A DNA stretch of 13,657 nucleotides from a virus, in UHGV virus genome UHGV-0069434, one strand, 5' to 3'. Under the pieces are notes generated by a model. It searched no databases, was not told the DNA's origin, and was given only the letters and a program-made list of their open reading frames with translations. Positions 1-13,482 of this stretch are shown here, piece by piece. Position 1 is the first letter of the stretch, and each line of letters starts with the position of its first letter. A program made the position numbers and the translations under genes.

Positions 1-126
1 TTTTAGTTTAGTGGGGTCTTTGCGTGTTGCCTGTAGGCGGCCTGTTCGTATCCAGTTGGTAGCGGTAGGTCTGGATATCTTGAGAAACTGACAGGCCTCA
101 TCGAGTGTGAGGCTGTATGGCTCCAT
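1..126 (-). CDS. Excisionase/AlpA-family HTH DNA-binding protein, partial (start codon in window, 3' end beyond position 1)
   Basis: Reverse-complement translation from ATG at 126..124 gives MEPYSLTLDEACQFLKISRPTATNWIRTGRLQATRKDPTKLK, a typical excisionase-type helix-turn-helix. Start overlaps the stop of the upstream gene (TAATG). Not in the ORF track because it is truncated. Confidence 0.5.
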   Translation of the reverse strand, partial: MEPYSLTLDEACQFLKISRPTATNWIRTGRLQATRKDPTKLK

Positions 127-431
127 TATTTCACCTCTTGCTGTGTCATTGTTGAAAAATGGATACCAGCTCGTTGCTGCCAGACGATCCAACCGAGAGT
201 CATATCCCATGCCATGTATTCGTTATCGCCGTTTTTTGCTCTCCGACGATCTACTAAGTCACCGAAACGCTTTTCCATGAATAATTCATAGGCTTCGCGT
301 TCATCTGGCTCTACTTCCAGAGATACGAGTGCGATTTCATAAGCACGGCGCTCAATATCGTCTCGAACCTCTAGGCTGCTGATTCGTTCTTTGATTTCTT
401 TAATCAGTTCTTTATTGGTAAATGTGGTCAT
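126..431 (-). CDS. yfdT: Hypothetical phage early protein, 101 aa (YfdT-like by size and position)
   Basis: ORF track; ATG start overlaps the stop of the upstream gene by 1 nt (TAATG). No recognisable motif; symbol assigned only from the match of length and gene order to the CPS-53 yfdPQRST cluster, recalled from memory. Confidence 0.55.
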   Translation of the reverse strand: MTTFTNKELIKEIKERISSLEVRDDIERRAYEIALVSLEVEPDEREAYELFMEKRFGDLVDRRRAKNGDNEYMAWDMTLGWIVWQQRAGIHFSTMTQQEVK

Positions 432-793
432 TATGCTCCAGCCTCCGGTGCTTTTGGCATTACTGCCCAGTGAGTGATATTGACGTTTTCAAGGTCCCCG
501 ACCTGAAATGTCCACTGCCATTCTCCGGTTTCTTTTTGTCCCCAGGTGTACCAGAGAGAACGCCAGCCAATCAGCCAGCCTTCTCCATTAGCATCAAATA
601 ACAGAACACTTTCATTTGCTGGTGGCAGTTCAGCTGACACTGGTATTATTTTGTTTTCCAGTGCCGCACATTTAGCTTCAAGCGCGTCGAATTTACGTAC
701 CAGGTACTCAGCATTTGTTTCGTTCACTTTCAGATCTCGCGGTACACATTTCCCGCGAAGAAACCCTTCCATTTCGAAAACATTCATGCGCAT
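431..793 (-). CDS. yfdS: DUF551-like phage protein, 120 aa (YfdS-like)
   Basis: ORF track; C-terminus ITHWAVMPKAPE resembles the THW-x-PLP-x-PP signature I recall for DUF551. An alternative start at the second Met (787) would give an ATGA overlap with the upstream gene stop. Length and order match CPS-53 yfdS. Confidence 0.55.
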   Translation of the reverse strand: MRMNVFEMEGFLRGKCVPRDLKVNETNAEYLVRKFDALEAKCAALENKIIPVSAELPPANESVLLFDANGEGWLIGWRSLWYTWGQKETGEWQWTFQVGDLENVNITHWAVMPKAPEAGA

Positions 794-1320
794 TTGCGTA
801 ACTCCGATAAATCGTTAAAACGTTCCATAAACATCCCGTAGGCATGACCCGGTGCCAGTGGAATCACGTTGAACATCTCTGTTGCCGGGATGCCTTCCAG
901 TACAGGCCAGAAAGAGCCATCATCAAGCCCGAGATCGCGGCGTTCGGTTGCCAGCATGATGAGATCGGCATATTTCACGGGTGTACTCATAACTGGGGGT
1001 AACCCGTATTTCTCACGGATTACGGCGTCTATTTTTTCTTCCATCCGTTTATAGTCAGGAAGAAGGCGTTTCAGTGGTGCGGGAATGTCCTGGCAATACG
1101 CTTCTGTTGCATCATGCATTAACGCTTCAAAAGCAAATTCCTGCGGCACCAGCTGGCTGCAAAGAACCGCATGTTGGGCGACGCTGTAGAAGTGCGAAAG
1201 ATGACCGGCAAAGCGACAGATATTTGAAAGGGAAACCGCGATATCGTTAATATCGATGTCGTCTTTATTTATCTTGTCATAATAAAAATGCTTCCCGGAA
1301 AAAGTTTTAATAAATGACAT
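784..1320 (-). CDS. yfdR: HD-domain phosphohydrolase, 178 aa (YfdR-like 5'-deoxynucleotidase family)
   Basis: HD-domain motifs in translation: SVAQHAVL (His), ALMHDATEAY (His-Asp), KYADLIMLATERRDL (Asp). Track ORF starts at GTG 1347; I prefer ATG at 1320 (MSFIKTF...), preceded by GGAG about 7 nt upstream, giving 178 aa, the length I recall for E. coli YfdR. Confidence 0.7.
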   Translation of the reverse strand: MSFIKTFSGKHFYYDKINKDDIDINDIAVSLSNICRFAGHLSHFYSVAQHAVLCSQLVPQEFAFEALMHDATEAYCQDIPAPLKRLLPDYKRMEEKIDAVIREKYGLPPVMSTPVKYADLIMLATERRDLGLDDGSFWPVLEGIPATEMFNVIPLAPGHAYGMFMERFNDLSELRKCA

Positions 1321-1413
1321 TTTGTTCTCCACGTATATGCACTGCACCGCGCTGAATTCTGGTAAAAGGAAGCCCTCACCATCCGGTGATTATTGAGTTA
1401 ATTACGTTTCCAT

Positions 1414-1435
1414 AAATGCCCCCGCAGGGGCATTT
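1414..1435. terminator. Perfect 9-bp-stem hairpin (AAATGCCCC-cgca-GGGGCATTT) between yfdQ-like stop and yfdR-like start; possible intra-operon terminator/attenuator
   Basis: Palindrome read directly from sequence. GC-rich core with a short A/T flank and no long U-tract, so terminator strength is uncertain. Confidence 0.3.
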
Positions 1436-1447
1436 GCAGTAATGAAA

Positions 1448-2272
1448 TCAGGCGGTGAAAGTACCAATAAAGGTTTCTACTTTGCTGTCTTTGAATTTCT
1501 CAACAAGCAGATCACGAAATTCGTTAGCCATTTCTTCCTGCACCGCTTCCAGCTGAATAATGCGCAGAACCAGTACAGGACGATCGCCAGTGATAATGCT
1601 GAGGCGTAATTTAAACGGACGTTCTTTCAGACCTTCAAACGGAACGCATTTAAATTCAAATGTCACTGGCATAATGTCTTTGGTCTTCGCTTCGACAGAC
1701 TCCATCAGGGAGCGTTTGCCGCTGAAGTCATTATCTTCAAAATCAGCGGTCTGGTTCGCTTCAATTGTGATTTTACGGATCGCCGCAGCCGCTTTGGTTG
1801 CCTGAATGGCGTCACCATTAGCATCAAAGCCCACAAGATAGTCGGCCCAGTCTTCAATCCATTCTGCCAGTGACTTCTGGGAGTTACGCTCGCCGTTAAC
1901 AGACAACAGGGCAGAGAACGGTGCTGTCTTTTTCAGTTTGAGAGTGGCGGTGTTATCTGCGTGACCTGGTTCATCAATAGTACCCAGGTTAAGCACACTG
2001 ACGGCTCGCATATTATCGGCATCGATAAAGCAGCGGGTGCCTTCATCTGCAAGATCTTTAGAATAACGGGTAAAGTCATCGATGCTGGCAGTGGAAAGCG
2101 CACCACGGAAACGGAAGCGATTTAAATTAAATTTTTCCAGATCATGAATGCGGAAATTCTCAGGCAATGCCACAGCATCGGCACCAATCTTACTGATAAT
2201 TTCATTAACACCCTGAGCAGAAATAAGGGCATGGATTTGATTAATTGCGGTTGCGTCTAAGTTCTGAGACAT
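1448..2272 (-). CDS. yfdQ: DUF2303-like phage protein, 274 aa (YfdQ-like)
   Basis: ORF track; ATG at 2272 preceded by GAGGA about 6 nt upstream. Length and position match CPS-53 YfdQ (274 aa, from memory). No catalytic motif recognised. Confidence 0.65.
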
Positions 2273-2337
2273 AATAAGTCCTCACTATATAAAGATATTC
2301 AGTGATGAGATAAATAATCAGTTTATTAAGAACGATA

Positions 2338-2700
2338 TTAATGACCTGCTGCGCGTAGTTTTCCGTCAGGTTCACCGGCAAGAGTCAGTAATTGTCCCTG
2401 GTCTTCCTGCAGAATAGTCAGGCGACCACCGCGATTGACATACATCGGCGTTTCGGTGGTGTCTTCTTCGGAAATTTTCCCGCGGTTAGTTGGGCGAACA
2501 TATGAGAGTTTGTGTTTGATTTTCACACGGTTCTCATCAAACGGTTCGATTTCCAGGTTGAGCGAGACCTTACCTTTGGTTTTCGTGTTCATCACACCGG
2601 AAGCGACTTCACTGAGAACTGCGCCGAGTTTGGTTTCAAATACGCCGCCGTCCAGCTCCCCGATAAATGCCTGCACATCAGTACTGCGTTCGCTAGCCAT
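2338..2700 (-). CDS. yfdP: Hypothetical phage early protein, 120 aa (YfdP-like); first gene of the leftward early operon
   Basis: Track ORF 2338..2931 (197 aa) has a long N-terminal extension. Internal ATG at 2700 (MASERSTDVQ...) is preceded by AGGAG 7-8 nt upstream and gives exactly 120 aa, matching CPS-53 YfdP length from memory. The upstream extension runs through a structured inverted-repeat region. Confidence 0.55.
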   Translation of the reverse strand: MASERSTDVQAFIGELDGGVFETKLGAVLSEVASGVMNTKTKGKVSLNLEIEPFDENRVKIKHKLSYVRPTNRGKISEEDTTETPMYVNRGGRLTILQEDQGQLLTLAGEPDGKLRAAGH

Positions 2701-2748
2701 TTTGCTGCTCCTCATCATATCGACCCTGCAAGGTCGGTTGGTTTCTCC

Positions 2749-2837
2749 ACAAAACAGAGAAGAACACCTGCGGTGACTGCCGCCCGGATGGATTGGGTTA
2801 TGAGCCCGTCGTCCGGTGATTCTCTTCTCTGTTTTGT
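2749..2837. repeat. Perfect 15-bp inverted repeat (ACAAAACAGAGAAGA at 2749..2763; TCTTCTCTGTTTTGT at 2823..2837) separated by 59 bp, in the leader upstream of the yfdP-like gene
   Basis: Read directly from the sequence; the arms are exact reverse complements. The spacer contains further short inverted repeats (CCGG-rich). Confidence 0.6.
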
Positions 2838-3308
2838 AAAAAGAGCGGTACCAGCCGGAAGCAAGGGTACAAACTGGTACCGCCAAAGCAGTGGCTGTTG
2901 TGGTGGGGTTGTCACTCAGGCGTATGGTCAACCTGACAATCCGGTGCCCTCAACGGGGAAAGAGTAACCCCGCCATACTTACCGCCGCGCCATTTCGCGG
3001 ATTACCACAACGCTGAGAGCACTTAGCCAGTTACGGCACCACACTTTGTCGCGGCTCCATAAATGCCCTCATCGTTGCACCCTGGTCTCTTCCCAGGCGT
3101 CAAACCGAATCGCCACGCTGGTTAGGCGTCTTATCAGCATCATCATTGACTTGCACATTCCGGCTACCTGGTTTGTTTGCCCGAGCAAGGAGTGGATTGT
3201 CCCCTTTAACGTCCCCAGACCGCTAACGACGCATGTGCCATACGCCGTGTTACAACCAAATTTTGTTAGTACCTTGTTTGTTTGTCTGGAAAGAAAGATA
3301 AAATGAAG

Positions 3309-3323
3309 TTGCGCATTATGCAA
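3309..3323. promoter_or_regulatory. Operator site OL-a: TTGCgcattatGCAA (TTGC-N7-GCAA palindrome)
   Basis: 15-bp site with palindromic ends read directly; the same architecture recurs at 3333..3347 and 4092..4106, flanking the repressor gene on both sides. Confidence 0.5.
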
Positions 3324-3332
3324 GTGTTTTTG

Positions 3333-3347
3333 TTGCGAGATATGCAA
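3333..3347. promoter_or_regulatory. Operator site OL-b: TTGCgagatatGCAA
   Basis: Second copy of the TTGC-N7-GCAA motif, 9 bp from OL-a. Confidence 0.5.
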
Positions 3348-3361
3348 TTTAAAGGGTAATG

Positions 3362-3383
3362 AAAAGCCACCTTTGGGTGGCTA
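3362..3383 (-). terminator. Intrinsic terminator downstream of the cI-like repressor gene
   Basis: Minus-strand transcript: AGCCACC-caaa-GGTGGCT hairpin (7-bp GC-rich stem) followed by TTTTCATT, about 20 nt after the repressor stop codon (3403..3405). Confidence 0.5.
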
Positions 3384-3402
3384 ATTGATGAGGAGGTAAG
3401 GG

Positions 3403-4071
3403 TTAATTGTGTCGCTTAAGGGTTTGTGACCGTCTGATTAAGACCTTTCCAAAGACCATAAACCGGTGTTCATTTTCGCTGGTAATTCCCCATTCACGGT
3501 AAATCTGGTTATCAGAAATCACCAGTAGTTTGTCAGGTATCATTTGCAGTCGTTTGACATAAATTTTATCATCAAAACCAAATACATAGATACCATCTCC
3601 ATCAAACTGATTGATACTGACATCAACGAAGATGAGATCTCCTGGCTCAATGGTTGGACACATACTGTCCCCACGAACGTTGATAACTTTAATGTGATTG
3701 GCTGGCCGTCCGCCAAACATCGATACAGCATTATCAGTTCTGTATTCAATGGCATGAATCACATCAATGACATCACCGCCCTGGATAAGGCCATTTCCCG
3801 CACTGGCACTGACATCCAGCATTTCAATACGGAATACATCCTTCACCTGCGCAACATCCTCACTAATACTGTTTTTACATACAGTATTACTTTTGACGTC
3901 TGAGGTAAAGAGATCAGCAATATCAACACCTAAGCTCCTGGCAATATTACTCAGGGCTTGTTCAGTGAATTGTTTCTGCTTACCTGTTTCCAGTCCTATT
4001 GCTTCAGCGAGATCGGCGATTTTCATGTTCTTCGCCTGGCGAAGTTGTCTGACTCGGTTTCCTATGTTCAT
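3403..4071 (-). CDS. cI-like prophage repressor, 222 aa: N-terminal XRE-type HTH plus C-terminal S24 (LexA-like) autopeptidase domain
   Basis: N-terminus NRVRQLRQAKNMKIADLAEAIGLETG is a typical HTH; C-terminus has the S24 motif VRGDSMCPTIEPGDLIFVD and a candidate Ala-Gly cleavage site (SASAGNG). Divergent from a cro-like gene, with operators on both sides. Confidence 0.85.
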   Translation of the reverse strand: MNIGNRVRQLRQAKNMKIADLAEAIGLETGKQKQFTEQALSNIARSLGVDIADLFTSDVKSNTVCKNSISEDVAQVKDVFRIEMLDVSASAGNGLIQGGDVIDVIHAIEYRTDNAVSMFGGRPANHIKVINVRGDSMCPTIEPGDLIFVDVSINQFDGDGIYVFGFDDKIYVKRLQMIPDKLLVISDNQIYREWGITSENEHRFMVFGKVLIRRSQTLKRHN

Positions 4072-4168
4072 GCGTTTATTACATTTCTTTATTGCGCGTT
4101 AAGCAAATCAACTTGCGCAAAATATTTGCGTGAAATAATATGCTCATCACGCAATATGTGGAGGTCAT
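4072..4168. promoter_or_regulatory. OR region with divergent promoters (pR-like rightward for cro; pRM-like leftward for the repressor)
   Basis: Perfect operator TTGCgcgttaaGCAA at 4092..4106; palindromic TTGCGCAA at 4113..4120; weaker ATGCtcatcacGCAA at 4140..4154. Rightward: -35 TTGCGC (4113..4118), 17 nt, -10 TAATAT (4136..4141), then GGAGG before cro ATG 4169. Leftward: -35 TTGCTT (rc of 4101..4106), 17 nt, -10 TGTAAT (rc of 4078..4083), which places the start at or next to the repressor ATG (leaderless, as for lambda pRM). Confidence 0.5.
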
Positions 4169-4429
4169 ATGCAATCACCATTACGGAATATGCGTAAGGC
4201 GCACGGATTTACTTTGCAGCATGTTGCTGCTGGCGTTCAGGTCAATCCAGCGACGCTGAGTCGTATTGAAAGACTGGAACAAATTCCATCTATCGATCTT
4301 GCAGAACGTCTGGCCAATTTTTTTAAGGGTGAAATCAGCGAAATGCAGATTCTTTATCCGGCACGTTTTCAATCTAGCCAAAACCAGAATGGGTTTAAAC
4401 CACAGGAACAGGAGGTAAGCCGTGGGTAA
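4169..4429 (+). CDS. Cro-like HTH (XRE family) regulator, 86 aa
   Basis: ORF track; HTH signature GFTLQHVAAGVQVNPATLSRIERLEQIPS; divergent from the repressor; GGAGG 4 nt upstream of ATG. Confidence 0.75.
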   Translation: MQSPLRNMRKAHGFTLQHVAAGVQVNPATLSRIERLEQIPSIDLAERLANFFKGEISEMQILYPARFQSSQNQNGFKPQEQEVSRG

Positions 4430-4973
4430 TCATCACTGGAAAGTGGAAAAACAGCCTGAGTGGTACGTGAAAGCTGTCAGAAAAACTATCGCGGCGTTGC
4501 CGGGGGGTTACGCTGAAGCTGCTGAGTGGCTGGATGTAACAGAGAACGCATTATTTAACCGCCTTCGTGCCGATGGCGATCAGATTTTCCCGCTGGGATG
4601 GGCAATGATTTTACAACGTGCTGGTGGCACTCACTTCATTGCCGACGCTGTGGCGCAGTCTGCAAATGGCGTCTTTGTGTCTCTTCCTGACGTCGAGGAT
4701 GTGGACAACGCCGATATTAACCAGCGCCTGCTGGAAGTCATTGAACAGATTGGCAGTTATTCCAGACAGATTCGTTCGGCAATCGAAGACGGTGTGGTGG
4801 AACCGCATGAGAAGACAGCAATTAACGACGAGCTGTATCTCTCAATTTCGAAGCTGCAGGAGCATGCAGCACTGGTCTACAAAATCTTCTGCGCTCCAGA
4901 AAAGAGTAACGCCCGCGAGTGTGCAGCTCCGGGCGCCGTGGCGTGTCGTGACTGTGGAGAAACTAACGCATGA
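4422..4973 (+). CDS. CII-like early regulatory protein, 183 aa
   Basis: GTG start with GGAGG about 7 nt upstream; overlaps cro stop. Region [36 protein letters not shown] resembles the HTH and following helix of lambda CII as I recall it; position immediately after cro fits. Confidence 0.55.
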
Positions 4974-5308: not shown

Positions 5309-5328
5309 AGGTCGGTCATGAGCACTAA
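5149..5328 (+). CDS. Small protein, about 59 aa, alternative frame ([58 protein letters not shown])
   Basis: TTG at 5149 is preceded by AAGGAG (5135..5140) at 8-nt spacing. The translation has balanced, protein-like composition. Track lists the frame from GTG 5107, which lacks an SD. Stop overlaps the replication gene start by 11 nt. Confidence 0.4.
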
Positions 5329-6175
5329 ATTAACCGGCTATGTATGGGATGGTTGCGCTGCGTCAGGCATGAAATTATCCAGCGTGGCAATTATGGCCCG
5401 CCTGGCTGATTTCAGTAATGACGAAGGTGTGTGCTGGCCATCAATTGAAACTATTGCCCGTCAGATTGGCGCGGGGATGAGTACCGTCAGAACGGCTATC
5501 GCACGGCTGGAAGCAGAAGGCTGGTTAACGCGTAAGGCGCGTCGCCAGGGTAACCGCAATGCGTCGAATGTTTATCAGCTTAACGTTGCGAAGCTTCAGG
5601 CAGCGGCATTTTCTCAACTGTCAGATTCTGACCCGTCAAAATCTGACGCATCAAAATCTGACACGTCAAAATTTGATGTGTCGAAATCTGGCAAAAAAGC
5701 GGGTTTTCACCCGTCAGAATCTGGCGGGGATCCGTCAGTAAAATCAAAACAAGATCCACAAGTAACTTCAAAACCCTCTTGTCCGGTTGCGGCGCAACCC
5801 GACCCTGAAGTTGTGATTACCGACCAGGCAATTTTGGTTCTGACCCATTTGAACCAGATCAGCGGATCCCGGTATCAGAAATCAAAAACATCCCTGGAGA
5901 ACATCCGCGCCCGACTGCGTGAGGGATACAGCGTTGCAGACCTGCAACTCGTTATCGACCTGAAGCATGAGCACTGGCACGAGAACGACGAGCAGTACCA
6001 GTACATGCGGCCGGAAACGCTGTTTGGCCCGAAGAAATTCGAGAGCTATCTGCAAAGCGCTACCCGCTGGGATCAGAAGGGACGGCCTAAACGCGCTGAC
6101 TGGGGTGCGAAAAAGCGCGATGTGATGGCTTTTGGTCCGGTTGATACAACGATTCCAGAGGGGTTCAGAGGATGA
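5318..6175 (+). CDS. Phage replication initiator / replisome organiser (lambda O-like role), 285 aa
   Basis: N-terminal HTH-like region (VAIMARLADFSNDEGVCWPSIETIARQIGAGMSTVRTAIARLEAEGWL). C-terminal region (LTHLNQISGSRYQKSKTSLENIRARLREGY...HEHWHENDEQYQYMRPETLFGPKKFESYLQSA) resembles the conserved phage replication-protein C-terminal domain. Tandem iterons lie inside the gene. Confidence 0.7.
   Translation: MSTKLTGYVWDGCAASGMKLSSVAIMARLADFSNDEGVCWPSIETIARQIGAGMSTVRTAIARLEAEGWLTRKARRQGNRNASNVYQLNVAKLQAAAFSQLSDSDPSKSDASKSDTSKFDVSKSGKKAGFHPSESGGDPSVKSKQDPQVTSKPSCPVAAQPDPEVVITDQAILVLTHLNQISGSRYQKSKTSLENIRARLREGYSVADLQLVIDLKHEHWHENDEQYQYMRPETLFGPKKFESYLQSATRWDQKGRPKRADWGAKKRDVMAFGPVDTTIPEGFRG
5621..5726. 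repeat. Tandem 15-bp iteron-like direct repeats (core GTCAAAATCTGAC), putative phage origin of replication inside the initiator gene
   Basis: Read directly: CCGTCAAAATCTGAC (5633..5647), GCATCAAAATCTGAC (5648..5662), ACGTCAAAATTTGAT (5663..5677), GTGTCGAAATCTGGC (5678..5692), plus partial copies at 5621..5632 and 5711..5725. Each core has internal dyad symmetry (GTCA...TGAC). The repeats encode SKSD-type peptide repeats and generate the repetitive ORF artefacts at 5559..5771. Confidence 0.55.
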
Positions 6176-7071
6176 CGTTAAACAAATATTGCCAGGCGCT
6201 GGCGGCACTACGTAGCAAACCAGCCCACCAACTGAAAGAAGTTGGCGATCAGTGGCGGACGCCGGATCTGCTTTTTTGGGGGATCAACGCGCTATTTGGT
6301 CCATTAGTTTTGGACTTGTTTGCAGACGACGACAACGCGAAATGCCCGGTATGGTACACCGCCGAAGATAACGCGCTGGTGCAGGATTGGGCGGAAATGT
6401 TGGATTCAATCGGCGGGGCCGCATTCGGTAATCCACCCTATAGCCGCTCTCAGTACCACGAGAAACAGGCGATCACCGGCATGACCCACATCATGGATCA
6501 CACAATGGAGATGCGTGAAAAGGGTGGGCGTTATGTGTTCCTCATTAAAGCGGCGACAAGTGAAACATGGTGGCCGGAAGACGCCGATCACATCATGTTT
6601 ATTCGCGGTCGCATTGGTTTCGATCTCCCTGTGTGGTTTGTTCCTGCCGACGATAAGCAGAAACCCACAGGTGCTTTCTTTGCTGGTGCAATCGCTTTGT
6701 TCGACAAGACCTGGCGCGGCGAGCGTTTCAGCTACATCAGCCGTACCGATCTGGAGGAAAAAGGGAAGGCGTTTATGTCACTGGTCGAATTTGCCGCGGG
6801 AAAGGTTCAGCCACCAGCCACCATGGTGCCAGAGCAAGAAGAACCCATTGTAGCGCCAGCAGTATTACCTGATGTGGATTCGCGTATCTGGCCGCTTGAG
6901 GTTGGTCTGGTGTTCAACCAGGTTGAGGGGGCGGATTCTCTGGACGCATCGCAGCAGAACAAGCTGAAAGCGAACATTAACCAGCTGTGGCTTGAGCGTA
7001 TGCCAACCAGCGAAATCATTACTACTGCTGGTGGACTGGTCAGCAGCATGCAGGGGGCCATCAATGCGTGA
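6172..7071 (+). CDS. Phage-type N6-adenine DNA methyltransferase (phage Dam family), 299 aa
   Basis: LDLFADDDNAKCPVWYTAEDNALVQDWAEM...FGNPPYSRS matches the phage N6A-methyltransferase family signature including the NPPY catalytic motif. ATGA overlap with the replication gene stop. About 100 aa of C-terminal extension beyond the usual domain size. Corresponds in position to the yfdM fragment of CPS-53. Confidence 0.8.
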   Translation: MTLNKYCQALAALRSKPAHQLKEVGDQWRTPDLLFWGINALFGPLVLDLFADDDNAKCPVWYTAEDNALVQDWAEMLDSIGGAAFGNPPYSRSQYHEKQAITGMTHIMDHTMEMREKGGRYVFLIKAATSETWWPEDADHIMFIRGRIGFDLPVWFVPADDKQKPTGAFFAGAIALFDKTWRGERFSYISRTDLEEKGKAFMSLVEFAAGKVQPPATMVPEQEEPIVAPAVLPDVDSRIWPLEVGLVFNQVEGADSLDASQQNKLKANINQLWLERMPTSEIITTAGGLVSSMQGAINA

Positions 7072-9061
7072 GATTATCGTTGATAACTTTGCTGGTGGCG
7101 GTGGCGCATCAACGGGTATTGAACTGGCGATCGGGCGCAGCGTGGATATTGCGATCAACCACGACGAAAACGCCATTGCGATGCACAAGACGAACCACCC
7201 GGACACACTGCATTACTGCGAATCCGTGTTTGACGTGGATCCGGTAGCCGCCACTGGCGGTAATCCTGTCGGCCTGGCATGGTTTAGCCCGGACTGCCGA
7301 CATTTCTCGAAGGCCAAAGGCGCAAAGCCTGTGAAAAAAGAGATACGCGGTCTTGCCTGGATTGTTCTGCGTTGGGCACTGGCGAAGCGACCGCGCGTGA
7401 TGATGCTGGAGAACGTGGAAGAGTTCAAAACGTGGGGACCGTTAATTGACATCCCGCCTAAACCTGATTTGCCGGAAGCCCTTATGGCGGATTTTATTGG
7501 CCCGGTTTACCCTGGAAATAGTCGCCCAGACCCTGCCCGCACTGGAGAAACATTCAATGCATTTGTCGGCATGCTGTCCACTGGCATTCCTGCTGATCAC
7601 CCGGCACTGTCAGAGGTTTGTGAGTTTCTGTCTATTGAAAGAGGTAGCGAGCAGGCGCAACAGTTGGTGGATGGGCTTGGATATGATGTCGATTATCGCG
7701 AACTGCGCGCGTGTGATTACGGCGCGCCGACGATCCGCAAACGCTTCTTCATGGTCATGCGCTGCGATGGTTGTCCAATCCAGTGGCCTGCTGTTACCCA
7801 TGGGGATCCTAAGTCTCTGGAGGTGCAGAGCGGCAGGCTGATGCCATGGCGTACCGCTGCGGAATGTATCGACTGGAATGTTCCGGCCCTGTCCATCTTC
7901 GACCGCAAAAAACCGCTGGCGGAGAACACTCTGAAGCGGATCGCGCGCGGCATACAGCGCTTTGTTATCGAAAGTGCGTCGCCGTTTATCGTGAAGTGTA
8001 ACCACACAAGCTCAAAAAATTCGTATGACGCTTTTCGCGGGCAGTCGCTGAATGAGCCATTACAGACCATTACTAAAAAACTCGGCTACGCGTTAGCCGT
8101 TCCACACCTGACAAAATTCCGCACTGGCGCAACCGGGCAGCCCGTTACCGAACCAGTCCCGACGGTAACCGCTGGCACATCAAAACGTCCAGGTGGGAAT
8201 GGGCATGCACTCGGGATTGTTGAGGCTGCACTGACGCCATTCCTGGCGGGTAATGGCGGGAGTGAATACCAGGCTAAACCGCGCCCGCTGGATAAACCTG
8301 CTCATACCATTCTGAAGCAATCCCGCGCCTGTCTTGTTGCGCCAGTGATAGCCCGCCAGTTTGGGGCCAGCGTAGGCCATCGGGCAGACGAACCGAGCGC
8401 AACCATCACCGCTGGCGGTGGCGGTAAATCTCAACTGGTAACGCCTACGCTGATCCAGATGGGTTATGGCGAACGACCTGGACAAGAACCGCGTGTGCTG
8501 CGGCTGGATAACCCGCTGGGGACCGTTACTGCAGGTGGAAATAAATTCGCGACGGTGAGCGCGTTTCTGGCGAAACACTACGGCGGTAACTACACGGGAC
8601 CGGGTGTCAGTATGGATGAACCCGCGCACTCAGTGACCACTGTCGACCATCATGCAGTAGTTGCCTCTCATCTGGTGAAACTGCGTGGAACATGCCGCGA
8701 CGGGCAGCGCCTTGATGTACCTATGCCAACCATCACCGCTGGAGGCCAGCACGTGGGTGAGGTGCGCACATTTCTCGAGACATATTGCGGGGAAAGTGAC
8801 GATGAATGGCTGGTAACGATCAATGGGGTTAAATACCAGATCGTTGATATCGGAATGCGCATGTTGCAGCCGCATGAACTCTACAAAGCGCAGGGCTTCC
8901 CGGATGGATACGTTATTGATCAGGACTACCGTGGAAATCGCTATGCAAAAGATAAGCAGGTAGCCCGCTGCGGTAATGCGGTACCACCACCATTCGCCAG
9001 GGCGCTGGTGGAGGCAAATCTTCCGGAACTTTGTGCAGTGCAACAACAGGAGGTGGCATGA
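7064..9061 (+). CDS. DNA cytosine-5 methyltransferase, 665 aa, with expanded repeat-containing variable region
   Basis: Motif I DNFAGGGGAS; Cys motif WFSPDCRHFS (PCQ-like variant); motif VI MMLENV; later QGFPDGY and CGNAVPP (motif X-like). I take ATG at 7064 (MREIIV..., G-rich SD, 8-nt overlap with upstream stop) rather than the track's upstream extension from 6992. Confidence 0.8.
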   Translation: MREIIVDNFAGGGGASTGIELAIGRSVDIAINHDENAIAMHKTNHPDTLHYCESVFDVDPVAATGGNPVGLAWFSPDCRHFSKAKGAKPVKKEIRGLAWIVLRWALAKRPRVMMLENVEEFKTWGPLIDIPPKPDLPEALMADFIGPVYPGNSRPDPARTGETFNAFVGMLSTGIPADHPALSEVCEFLSIERGSEQAQQLVDGLGYDVDYRELRACDYGAPTIRKRFFMVMRCDGCPIQWPAVTHGDPKSLEVQSGRLMPWRTAAECIDWNVPALSIFDRKKPLAENTLKRIARGIQRFVIESASPFIVKCNHTSSKNSYDAFRGQSLNEPLQTITKKLGYALAVPHLTKFRTGATGQPVTEPVPTVTAGTSKRPGGNGHALGIVEAALTPFLAGNGGSEYQAKPRPLDKPAHTILKQSRACLVAPVIARQFGASVGHRADEPSATITAGGGGKSQLVTPTLIQMGYGERPGQEPRVLRLDNPLGTVTAGGNKFATVSAFLAKHYGGNYTGPGVSMDEPAHSVTTVDHHAVVASHLVKLRGTCRDGQRLDVPMPTITAGGQHVGEVRTFLETYCGESDDEWLVTINGVKYQIVDIGMRMLQPHELYKAQGFPDGYVIDQDYRGNRYAKDKQVARCGNAVPPPFARALVEANLPELCAVQQQEVA

Positions 9062-12429: not shown

Positions 12430-13482
12430 ATGAAAAATACTGTAAAAATAAACAGTGTTGAGTTAATCAACGCTGATAGCCTGCATTACGTCGCCACCCT
12501 CCCGGATAACTCTATTGATCTGATAGTTACGGATCCTCCGTACTTCAAAGTGAAGCCCAACGGCTGGGACAACCAATGGAAGGGGGACGAGGACTACTTA
12601 CGCTGGCTTGATAGCTGCCTGGCTGAGTATGCTCGCGTTCTTAAACCTGCTGGCAGCATCTACCTGTTTTGCGGTCATCGACTGGCCTCAGACATAGAGA
12701 TTATGATGCGTGCCCGGTTCAACATTTTGAATCACATCATCTGGGCAAAGCCATCGGGCCGCTGGAATGGTTGTAACAAAGAAAGCCTGCGCGCGTATTT
12801 TCCATCAACGGAACGGATTTTGTTTGCTGAGCACTATCTTGGGCCGTACACAGGTAAAGAGGATGTTTACGAAAGGAAAAGCACAGAGCTAAAGCAGCAT
12901 CTTATGACGCCACTGATTGACTACTTCCGTAATGCCCGTGAATCACTGGGTGTCAGCTCGAAAGAAATAGCTGAGGCAACCGGAAAGAAAAACATGGCGT
13001 CACACTGGTTTGGTGCAAGCCAATGGCAACTACCAAATGAAGTGGACTATAGAAAATTGCAGGAACTGTTCACGAGGATCGCTATCGATAAGCACATTCA
13101 GCAGAAGCTTGAACATCCTCACCACCAGCTGGTAGCCACCTATCAGTCATTAAACCGCAAGTATTCAGAATTGCTGGAGGAATACAAAACCCTCCGGCGC
13201 TGCTTCTCTGTTTCCGTTCTTGTTCCGTATACCGACGTATGGACGCATAAGCCTGTTCAGTTTTATCCAGGCAAACATCCATGCGAAAAACCTGCCGACA
13301 TGCTGAAGCAGATCATTAGCGCCAGCAGCAGACCGGGGGATATCGTTGCCGATTTCTTTATGGGCTCTGGTTCAACTGTGAAAGCTGCAATAGAACTTGG
13401 TCGTCGGGCGATCGGCGTAGAACTGGAAACCGACAGGTTTATTCAAACCACCGAAGAGGTGGAAAAACTCAACAAAACATAA
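12430..13482 (+). CDS. Beta-class amino-methyltransferase, probably N6-adenine (motif IV before motif I), 350 aa
   Basis: N-terminal SIDLIVTDPPYF (DPPY motif IV) and C-terminal DIVADFFMGSGSTVKAA (FxGxG AdoMet motif I), with a roughly 200-aa intervening target-recognition region. Weak SD at the ATG. Confidence 0.8.
   Translation: MKNTVKINSVELINADSLHYVATLPDNSIDLIVTDPPYFKVKPNGWDNQWKGDEDYLRWLDSCLAEYARVLKPAGSIYLFCGHRLASDIEIMMRARFNILNHIIWAKPSGRWNGCNKESLRAYFPSTERILFAEHYLGPYTGKEDVYERKSTELKQHLMTPLIDYFRNARESLGVSSKEIAEATGKKNMASHWFGASQWQLPNEVDYRKLQELFTRIAIDKHIQQKLEHPHHQLVATYQSLNRKYSELLEEYKTLRRCFSVSVLVPYTDVWTHKPVQFYPGKHPCEKPADMLKQIISASSRPGDIVADFFMGSGSTVKAAIELGRRAIGVELETDRFIQTTEEVEKLNKT

Follow-up and report, generated by a model that had tools for sequence, protein, structure and literature searches.

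A yfbR/yfdQ/yfdP-type gene cluster has been described as common in the early-left operons of lambdoid phages (Zheng et al. 2025, PMC12315714). Some of its carriers, namely LLS, ST64B and phiNP, have no recombination (Rec) module, but ArgO145 combines the cluster with a full one, and the authors thought it unlikely that recombination proteins are hidden among its genes (PMC12315714). A named copy, yfdPQRST, is carried by prophage CPS-53 (KpLE1) of Escherichia coli K-12. The present work concerns a cluster of the same type, five minus-strand genes at positions 126-2700 of the virus genome UHGV-0069434; the whole stretch of this DNA that was analysed, 13,657 nucleotides (nt), is referred to below as the window.

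Part of the K-12 cluster has been linked to chromosome replication. The genes yfdQRST were found as multicopy suppressors of the over-initiating hda-185 mutant (Noguchi & Katayama 2016, PMC4776307). The minimum set that suppresses over-initiation is yfdQ and yfdR together with either yfdS or yfdT, with yfdP being dispensable, and extra copies also inhibit initiation in wild-type cells and a number of regulatory mutants. In purified form, YfdR binds domain I of DnaA, for which Phe46 is important, and competes with DiaA and DnaB; moreover, extracts inhibit oriC replication in vitro (PMC4776307). As far as the work of Zimmerman (2008) is cited in that study, K-12 YfdR is a 5'-deoxynucleotidase with a low affinity, much below that of YfbR. 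The original prediction for this DNA, made from the sequence alone, rightly described YfdR as a 5'-deoxynucleotidase of the HD family; its statement that the other genes are uncharacterised in K-12 was outdated, since yfdQ, yfdR and yfdS or yfdT in multicopy inhibit initiation at oriC.

We show herein that the five genes are a near-identical copy of this named and partly characterised K-12 cluster, and are in that sense already known. The reading that we prefer, to which we give roughly even chances, is that the region is the mosaic early-left operon of a lambdoid prophage, in which yfdQ, yfdR and yfdS or yfdT contribute to host takeover by blocking initiation at oriC and which does not supply recombination functions. 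This reading is supported by the close match between the window proteins and the K-12 proteins used in the published experiments (98-100% identity; Table 1). At the DNA level, homology to K-12 (98%) covers window positions 64-2719 and ends 19 nt upstream of yfdP. Over its first 3.4 kilobases (kb), the window matches a prophage of strain YJ6, located beside intD and tRNA-Arg, at 99.6% identity. The same 3.4-kb stretch was found, at a coverage of at least 80%, in 1245 of 5426 complete E. coli genomes, where it is 97-99% conserved; a scan of viral contigs returned only near-identical copies and was uninformative. About one in four complete E. coli genomes carries the cluster, as do serotype-converting phages of Shigella and Shiga toxin (Stx) phages, so that its function is relevant to how prophages are induced and take over the host in pathogens.

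All five open reading frames (ORFs) are intact and encode, from left to right, proteins of 101, 120, 178, 274 and 120 amino acids (aa). ORF and family searches agreed with the original prediction on the sizes, order, strand and families of these genes, and on the excisionase-like gene that comes after them, whose ORF begins at 126. The gene order also agrees with the early-left position assigned to the cluster, between the repressor gene and xis/int. The further claim that the five genes are tightly coupled held in part: yfdR and yfdS share 10 nt, and TAATG overlaps join yfdS to yfdT and yfdT to xis, but yfdP and yfdQ are 65 nt apart and yfdQ and yfdR 127 nt. A hairpin in the yfdQ-yfdR spacer is possibly a weak terminator or an RNA-stabilising element that divides a yfdPQ unit from a yfdRST-xis unit, and the operon given for K-12, yfdPQ (PMC9181523), agrees with a break after yfdQ. 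As for the placement of the genes downstream of pL, the anatomy fits, with a cI-like repressor gene, its terminator and operator-like dyads all in place. We infer pL itself, near 3300-3350, because TTGC-N7-GCAA dyads flank cI. A leader of ~600 nt separates the operator-like sites from yfdP.

To see which of the genes travel together, 83 loci with a YfdQ relative were compared, 80 from one-genome-per-species contigs and three from annotated phages. In each of the 82 loci for which upstream DNA is available, yfdQ is directly preceded by a same-strand gene for a YfdP homologue. The pair extends to phages of Vibrio, Pseudomonas, Xanthomonas and Xylella, and the YfdP partners in Xylella phage Usme and in the Vibrio phage were recognised with 99% probability by hhalign profile comparison. 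YfdR follows yfdQ in 56 of the 83 loci and is missing from the other 27; the more distant loci, such as those of Marinobacter, Photobacterium and Hahella and those of the Vibrio, Pseudomonas and Xylella phages, are among those that lack it. YfdS and YfdT are encoded in only six and four of the 83, respectively. The YfdR family also occurs in many phages without YfdQ; its 333 phage records, some of them from phages of Bacillus, Caulobacter and Rhizobium, compare with 184 for YfdQ. The DNA downstream of yfdQ or yfdR is hypervariable, contributing 214 clusters of proteins of at least 70 aa among 82 loci, with 3'-5' exonucleases, dATP/dGTP pyrophosphohydrolases, methylases, single-stranded DNA-binding protein (SSB) and DUF551 proteins among the variable genes. 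The region is a mosaic and not a single functional module. The five genes are better not treated as one unit; their conserved core is yfdP-yfdQ, which is spread well beyond enteric bacteria.

YfdR scored 24.1 bits with the HD/YfbR-like Pfam family, below the cut-off of 25.9, and 19.9 bits with the NCBIfam equivalog PRK03826 (YfbR), for which the cut-off is 122. Judged from its sequence, YfdR is a related HD enzyme and not the YfbR orthologue. Its closest solved relative is the HD protein Atu1052 (PDB 2gz4, E 4e-14). The HD metal-binding motif H...HD...D is present, and residues H50, H69, D70, E73, D78 and D119 are invariant in 52 of 52 YfdR orthologues. The original prediction had also spoken of a nucleotide-metabolism module; this is plausible for YfdR alone.

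In the preferred reading, the operon would consist of three units: a widely conserved yfdP-yfdQ cassette with its own structured leader RNA; yfdR, encoding an HD-domain deoxynucleoside monophosphate (dNMP) phosphatase that also binds the host initiator DnaA; and yfdS and yfdT, two accessory genes that are rare and mosaic in the manner of Ea22. After induction, YfdR would occupy the Phe46 patch of DnaA domain I and impede binding by DiaA and DnaB, whereby new rounds of replication from the host oriC would be suppressed. This block would require YfdQ as well as YfdS or YfdT in vivo. As to recombination, the phage would do without a Rec module; its many Chi sites may recruit host RecBCD, complemented by RusA from the right arm. 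Both the notion that inhibition of initiation is the natural function and the contribution ascribed to YfdP-YfdQ are what we infer from these data.

Several points weigh against this reading. The initiation phenotype has been obtained from multicopy plasmids only, a yfdQRST deletion is without effect, and an overexpression artefact was allowed for by the authors themselves (PMC4776307). The block is known from plasmids and extracts, outside phage infection, and its physiological relevance is unproven. Pull-downs gave no binding of YfdQ, YfdS or YfdT to YfdR or DnaA (PMC4776307), which leaves the requirement for these three proteins unexplained. The invariant HD active site suggests selection on catalysis, and not on DnaA binding alone. 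Finally, because YfdP-YfdQ occur without YfdR in 27 of 83 loci, assisting YfdR cannot be their primary role.

The original prediction had proposed that the cluster might be a non-canonical recombination module in the place of lambda Red. Searches of the five proteins against Pfam, PHROG and NCBIfam gave no match to a single-strand annealing protein (SSAP; Redbeta/RecT, ERF, Rad52/Sak or Sak4), an exonuclease or Gam. No SSAP, partner exonuclease (lambda Exo/YqaJ) or RecBCD inhibitor (Gam/Abc2) was found in the window, where the sole recombination gene is that for RusA. In the closest genome, YJ6, only a truncated xis, intD and tRNA-Arg lie between yfdT and the host genes, with no Rec genes; a canonical recombinase just beyond the left edge is thereby excluded for the closest relative, and the earlier observation that none is recognisable was confirmed for both the window and this flank. 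The fold comparison that had been suggested for the 274-aa and 120-aa proteins went against the proposal as well: the models of YfdQ and YfdP matched no recombinase, SSAP, nuclease or Gam fold.

The neighbours of the pair in other phages point in the same direction. The Stx2a phage P13374 has, in this order, kil, gam-like, recT, exo, ssb, yfdP and yfdQ, followed by Ea22-like and DUF551 genes and then by xis and int; yfdP-yfdQ of the CP2-like phages of Xanthomonas and Xylella head an operon that also holds a recombinase, an exonuclease and SSB; and in the Vibrio phage the pair lies between a gene for a pol III epsilon-like exonuclease and that for SSB. Since the pair co-occurs with full Rec modules in P13374 and the CP2-like phages, it stands beside genes for recombination and replication and does not take their place, and the mutual exclusion expected of a substitute was not found. 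Directly between ssb and the DUF2303 gene of P13374, the phage of the O104:H4 outbreak, the yfdP homologue (7094-7434) is split over two frames, and the record lists it as a pair of small hypothetical proteins.

Chi (GCTGGTGG) occurs 11 times in the 13.7-kb window, where 0.52 sites are expected (~20-fold enrichment), and none of 200 shuffled sequences reached 11. Within these 13.7 kb of prophage, the window belongs with the lambdoid class described as "no Rec module - high Chi" (PMC12315714). The Chi enrichment points to the use of host RecBCD, and a role of the cluster as a substitute for Red is unlikely. Thus, the question of the missing Red functions is already well answered by Chi sites and host RecBCD.

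The biochemical role of YfdP-YfdQ is now a well-defined, testable question. YfdQ matched DUF2303 (PF10065) with 311 bits (cut-off 26.6) over residues 7-272. Its family comprises 1745 clusters at 50% identity; because the 150 best-scoring ones are single-domain proteins of ~270 aa, domain fusions give no clue to its function. YfdP belongs to no family in the local Pfam copy; its homologues carry PF27127, a family against which the window YfdP itself was not scored. An AlphaFold 2 model of YfdP has one long helix and three long strands. A solved structure of a YfdQ protein exists as PDB entry 9o7m ("YfdQ Protein"; E 9e-45 to YfdQ), with 36 chains of one sequence, and we found no publication on it. 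This sequence is 99% identical to YfdQ of the CP2-like Xanthomonas phage MET23-P3 (27837-28661). As neither the YfdP homologue nor the capsid protein of MET23-P3 was found in the PDB, the entry is likely a homo-oligomer, and probably represents a YfdQ-only assembly instead of a virion reconstruction or a YfdP-YfdQ complex.

The 36-chain assembly can be read in more than one way. SSAPs make large rings or filaments, YfdQ has conserved arginines (R52, R56, R166, R223 and R237), and the genes stand in the Rec-module position of a window without SSAP, exonuclease or Gam, all of which would suit a non-canonical recombinase or annealing system, made up of YfdQ with YfdP and/or YfdR, in place of lambda Red/Gam. 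Genes for SSB, exonuclease and recombinase adjoin the pair in other phages too, but in P13374 (gam-recT-exo-ssb) and in CP2-like phages (recombinase-exonuclease-SSB) they amount to complete modules. With ArgO145 likewise carrying both, a hidden recombinase judged unlikely (PMC12315714) and Chi enrichment as an alternative source of recombination, we regard this explanation as very improbable. The same oligomer could instead belong to a DNA-associated accessory factor of replication or recombination, for example an end-binding or genome-protecting assembly that works alongside recombinases and SSB. The neighbourhood of the pair is consistently one of DNA metabolism (in the Vibrio, Xylella and Xanthomonas phages, in P13374, and in Burkholderia phage JC1, whose DUF2303 protein, gp10, is encoded near RecT and YqaJ). 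The JC1 protein was detected in purified virions, and its authors suggested an association with DNA ends (PMC9144972), a detection made with five peptides in one study. A weak sensitivity of a yfdQ deletion to methyl methanesulfonate (MMS) and H2O2, as far as it is cited in PMC4776307, would agree with such a role. However, YfdP and YfdQ are acidic in all homologues checked, and model and fold searches detected no nucleic-acid-binding fold in either. An accessory factor of this kind is accordingly conceivable but unlikely.

Acidic proteins and an early-operon position are, on the other hand, typical of anti-defence genes, and a nucleotide-pool or anti-defence module is a further candidate. YfdR would then be mainly an enzyme, either a dNMP phosphatase like T5 Dmp or a hydrolase of signalling nucleotides, and YfdP-YfdQ would counter host defence. 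The invariant metal and catalytic residues of YfdR, its PHROG annotation (deoxyribonucleoside 5'-monophosphate phosphatase), the spread of its family across virulent and jumbo phages of many hosts, and the dATP/dGTP pyrophosphohydrolases and 3'-5' exonucleases among the accessory neighbours in related loci are all consistent with this. Its nucleotide affinity is nonetheless much below that of YfbR (Zimmerman 2008, in the citation given by PMC4776307), no cyclic-nucleotide phosphodiesterase signature was found, and no defence target was recognised; the five proteins had no match in PADLOC at E<=0.01, a library of defence and not of anti-defence proteins. We consider this module doubtful, to about the same degree as the accessory factor. 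Decaying cargo of defective prophages with no current function is scarcely credible. K-12 CPS-53 is indeed a remnant in which a deletion fused yfdP to ori iterons, xis is truncated in YJ6, and yfdP is frameshifted in the P13374 record; but conservation already contradicts such decay, with five intact ORFs, a stretch preserved over 1245 genomes, and YfdP, YfdQ and YfdR kept with invariant residues across genera and in plaque-forming phages. A mosaic early-left operon that blocks initiation at oriC is the reading to which we give the most weight.

The leader upstream of yfdP contains a structured RNA (2740-2844). Its DNA is 75-92% conserved, above the flanking genes, even in loci where YfdQ is only 55-69% identical, and the reading frame across it is not conserved. 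By RNAalifold and pair counts, 97.9% of the cells of the alignment are paired, and 14 of 34 pairs show compensatory changes; none of 500 shuffles reached this covariation, and slid controls gave at most six such pairs. Several G-U pairs are valid on the minus strand only. A covariance model recovered the element, always at the same position, in ~41 of 79 loci, with 30 strong and ~11 weak hits. Its core is also present in SfV, SfII, SfIV, ST64B, phiNP, LLS, mEp460, cdtI and Stx2c phages, and the element is absent where yfdP comes after ssb. The terminator-like hairpin that precedes it has its U-run at 2838-2844, where the 5' strand of the closing stem of the leader RNA starts, and divergent versions retain only this hairpin, the U-run and the long stem. 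The GGG-CUCAUAA-CCC hairpin is invariant in the alignment, and we take its sequence to be that of the initiator-tRNA anticodon stem-loop. A search of window positions 1-4500 against Rfam at E<=1 gave no match. This covarying RNA is a second well-defined, testable question.

Three interpretations of the leader RNA were tried and rejected. It is not HK022 put, as the covariance model, even when run unfiltered, did not hit the put loci of HK022, putL has an unrelated sequence and the architecture differs. Nor is it an AgvB-type (anti-GcvB) sponge: AgvB, of 51-60 nt, is located at the moron site of pR', and the CACAACA motif is hidden within a stem and lacking in the window copy. Pairing of the hairpin loop with the start codon of yfdP (AUGAG) was dismissed because loci without the hairpin start with AUGAG too. 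An upstream extension of yfdP, a 197-aa ORF from a TTG at 2931, was rejected as coding, the extension being unconserved and its frame shifting relative to the conserved nucleotides. Farther upstream on the minus strand, two leader blocks (2896-3023 and 3081-3248) reach 71-97% DNA identity in some related loci; these blocks contain no conserved ORF, and no N-like gene was recognisable between the operators and yfdP.

YfdP-YfdQ might constitute a phage system of two proteins that has so far escaped notice and whose fold differs from those of all characterised families. YfdQ would form a very large homo-oligomer, and the system would act in a new way on DNA transactions of host or phage, for instance through the sequestration of a host replication or repair factor or the coating of DNA ends. 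Its expression in the lambdoid phages of enterobacteria would be governed by a new class of cis-regulatory leader RNA with an exact copy of the initiator-tRNA anticodon stem-loop. We offer this proposal tentatively and, as a whole, think it improbable.

The features of the window are collected in Table 1.

Table 1. Coordinates of features in the 13,657-nt window; identities to K-12 are amino acid identities.
Feature	Position	Strand	Basis and remarks
Excisionase-like helix-turn-helix (HTH) gene (ypdJ/xis-like), N-terminal 42 codons	1..126	-	Pfam HTH_17, 36.9 bits vs cut-off 27; extends beyond window edge
yfdT, 101 aa	126..431	-	No Pfam family (local copy); PHROG 660; 98% identical to K-12 YfdT
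yfdS, 120 aa	431..793	-	N-terminal ~50-aa module and C-terminal DUF551; 100% identical to K-12 YfdS
yfdR, 178 aa from ATG	784..1320	-	HD-domain phosphohydrolase; 99% identical to K-12 YfdR
9-bp GC-rich hairpin AAAUGCCCC-UGC-GGGGCAUUU with short U-run, in yfdQ-yfdR spacer	1415..1435	-	Sequence and fold
yfdQ, 274 aa	1448..2272	-	DUF2303/YfdQ family; 99% identical to K-12 YfdQ
yfdP, 120 aa	2338..2700	-	GAGGAG Shine-Dalgarno 8 nt upstream; 98% identical to K-12 YfdP
Structured leader RNA, 105 nt	2740..2844	-	~22-bp closing stem, arm with hairpin GGG-CUCAUAA-CCC (GGGCUCAUAACCC), arm of variable length
Terminator-like hairpin GGCGGUACCAG...CUGGUACCGC	2845..2884	-	Sequence; stem co-varies among aligned loci
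Two operator-like dyads TTGC-N7-GCAA (putative oL)	3309-3323, 3333-3347		Exact matches; overlap the presumed leftward early promoter
Terminator of cI-like gene	3365-3382		Terminator scan
cI-like repressor (HTH and S24 peptidase)	3403..4071	-	Pfam Peptidase_S24, 6e-19, and HTH
Third TTGC-N7-GCAA dyad	4092-4106		cI-cro spacer; exact match
DNA methyltransferase gene, Dam-type	6172-7071	+	
DNA methyltransferase gene, 689 aa	6992-9061	+	N-terminal C5-cytosine methylase domain
DNA methyltransferase gene, N6/N4 type	12430-13482	+	
Chi sites (8)	618, 4620, 7027, 7091, 9004, 9360, 10637, 12308	+	
Chi sites (3)	6811, 11260, 13122	-	

The ORF of yfdR stays open up to a GTG at 1347, and the xis-like gene next to intD in YJ6 is annotated as a truncated HTH pseudogene. 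In YfdS, the match to DUF551 is marginal (22.2 bits vs a cut-off of 22), and no match to Ead_Ea22 was found even at E<=1. The modular N-terminus is shared with other PHROGs; for example, the N-terminal ~50 aa of YfdT match PHROGs 5117, 60 and 3323. An Ea22 variant likewise has DUF551 as its C-terminal domain (PMC10834534). DUF551 is a portable C-terminal domain, and yfdS and yfdT, both rare, are probably mosaic accessory genes in the style of Ea22.

To the right of the cluster lie genes for the cI-like repressor, cro, a cII-like gene, a replication gene, three DNA methyltransferases, RusA, an antirepressor, DUF968 and Q. No Pfam family matched the ~540 C-terminal residues of the methyltransferase protein of 689 aa. 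Three TCA(A/G)ATTTTG repeats with a spacing of 15 nt (5637-5676, minus-strand reading), within the O-like replication gene (5318-6175), resemble ori iterons. The K-12 yfdO/yfdP spacer consists of the same repeats, reported there as the sites that the transcription factor SrsR/YgfI binds most strongly ("SrsR boxes"; PMC9181523).

Among known systems, lambda Red/Gam and the lambdoid Rec modules share with this cluster the position in the early-left operon, between the immunity region and xis/int, but no homology or fold similarity to Rec-module proteins was found. LLS, ST64B and phiNP too combine the lack of Rec genes and a high Chi content with a yfdR/yfdQ/yfdP-type cluster in the early-left operon; the Chi comparison covers the 13.7 kb of this prophage that were available.

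YfdR has a likeness to the HD 5'-deoxynucleotidases of the YfbR and T5 Dmp type, the latter of which we assume to be a fitting parallel, in that it has the H...HD...D motif and a reported dNMP phosphatase activity. It differs from YfbR-type enzymes in scoring below the family cut-offs, in its low affinity for nucleotides and in its additional DnaA-binding activity. As an inhibitor, YfdR resembles lambda P and SirA of Bacillus subtilis, small proteins that bind the host initiator and block initiation, and the resemblance to SirA extends to the Phe46/Phe49 patch of DnaA domain I that both use (PMC4776307). Neither is related to YfdR in sequence; lambda P acts on domain III of DnaA, whereas YfdR is an enzyme of the HD fold.

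The leader RNA recalls HK022 put and lambda nut in lying between the early promoter and the first gene, beside a terminator-like hairpin, and CGCUCUUUUUACAA in the leader presumably resembles boxA. While put consists of two side-by-side stem-loops (~70 nt, just after the early promoter), the window RNA has a 22-bp closing stem around two arms, and, unlike put and nut, it is placed downstream of the terminator-like hairpin.

The closest system is the CPS-53 (KpLE1) cluster of K-12, with which the window has all five genes, their order and their junctions in common. In that remnant, the ori iterons within the O-like gene have been brought by a deletion to a point 19 nt upstream of the yfdP start, and in the genome closest to the window the cluster is found at the argU/intD site. 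On the contrary, the window prophage retains cI, cro, cII, replication genes, Q and the pL leader with its structured RNA.

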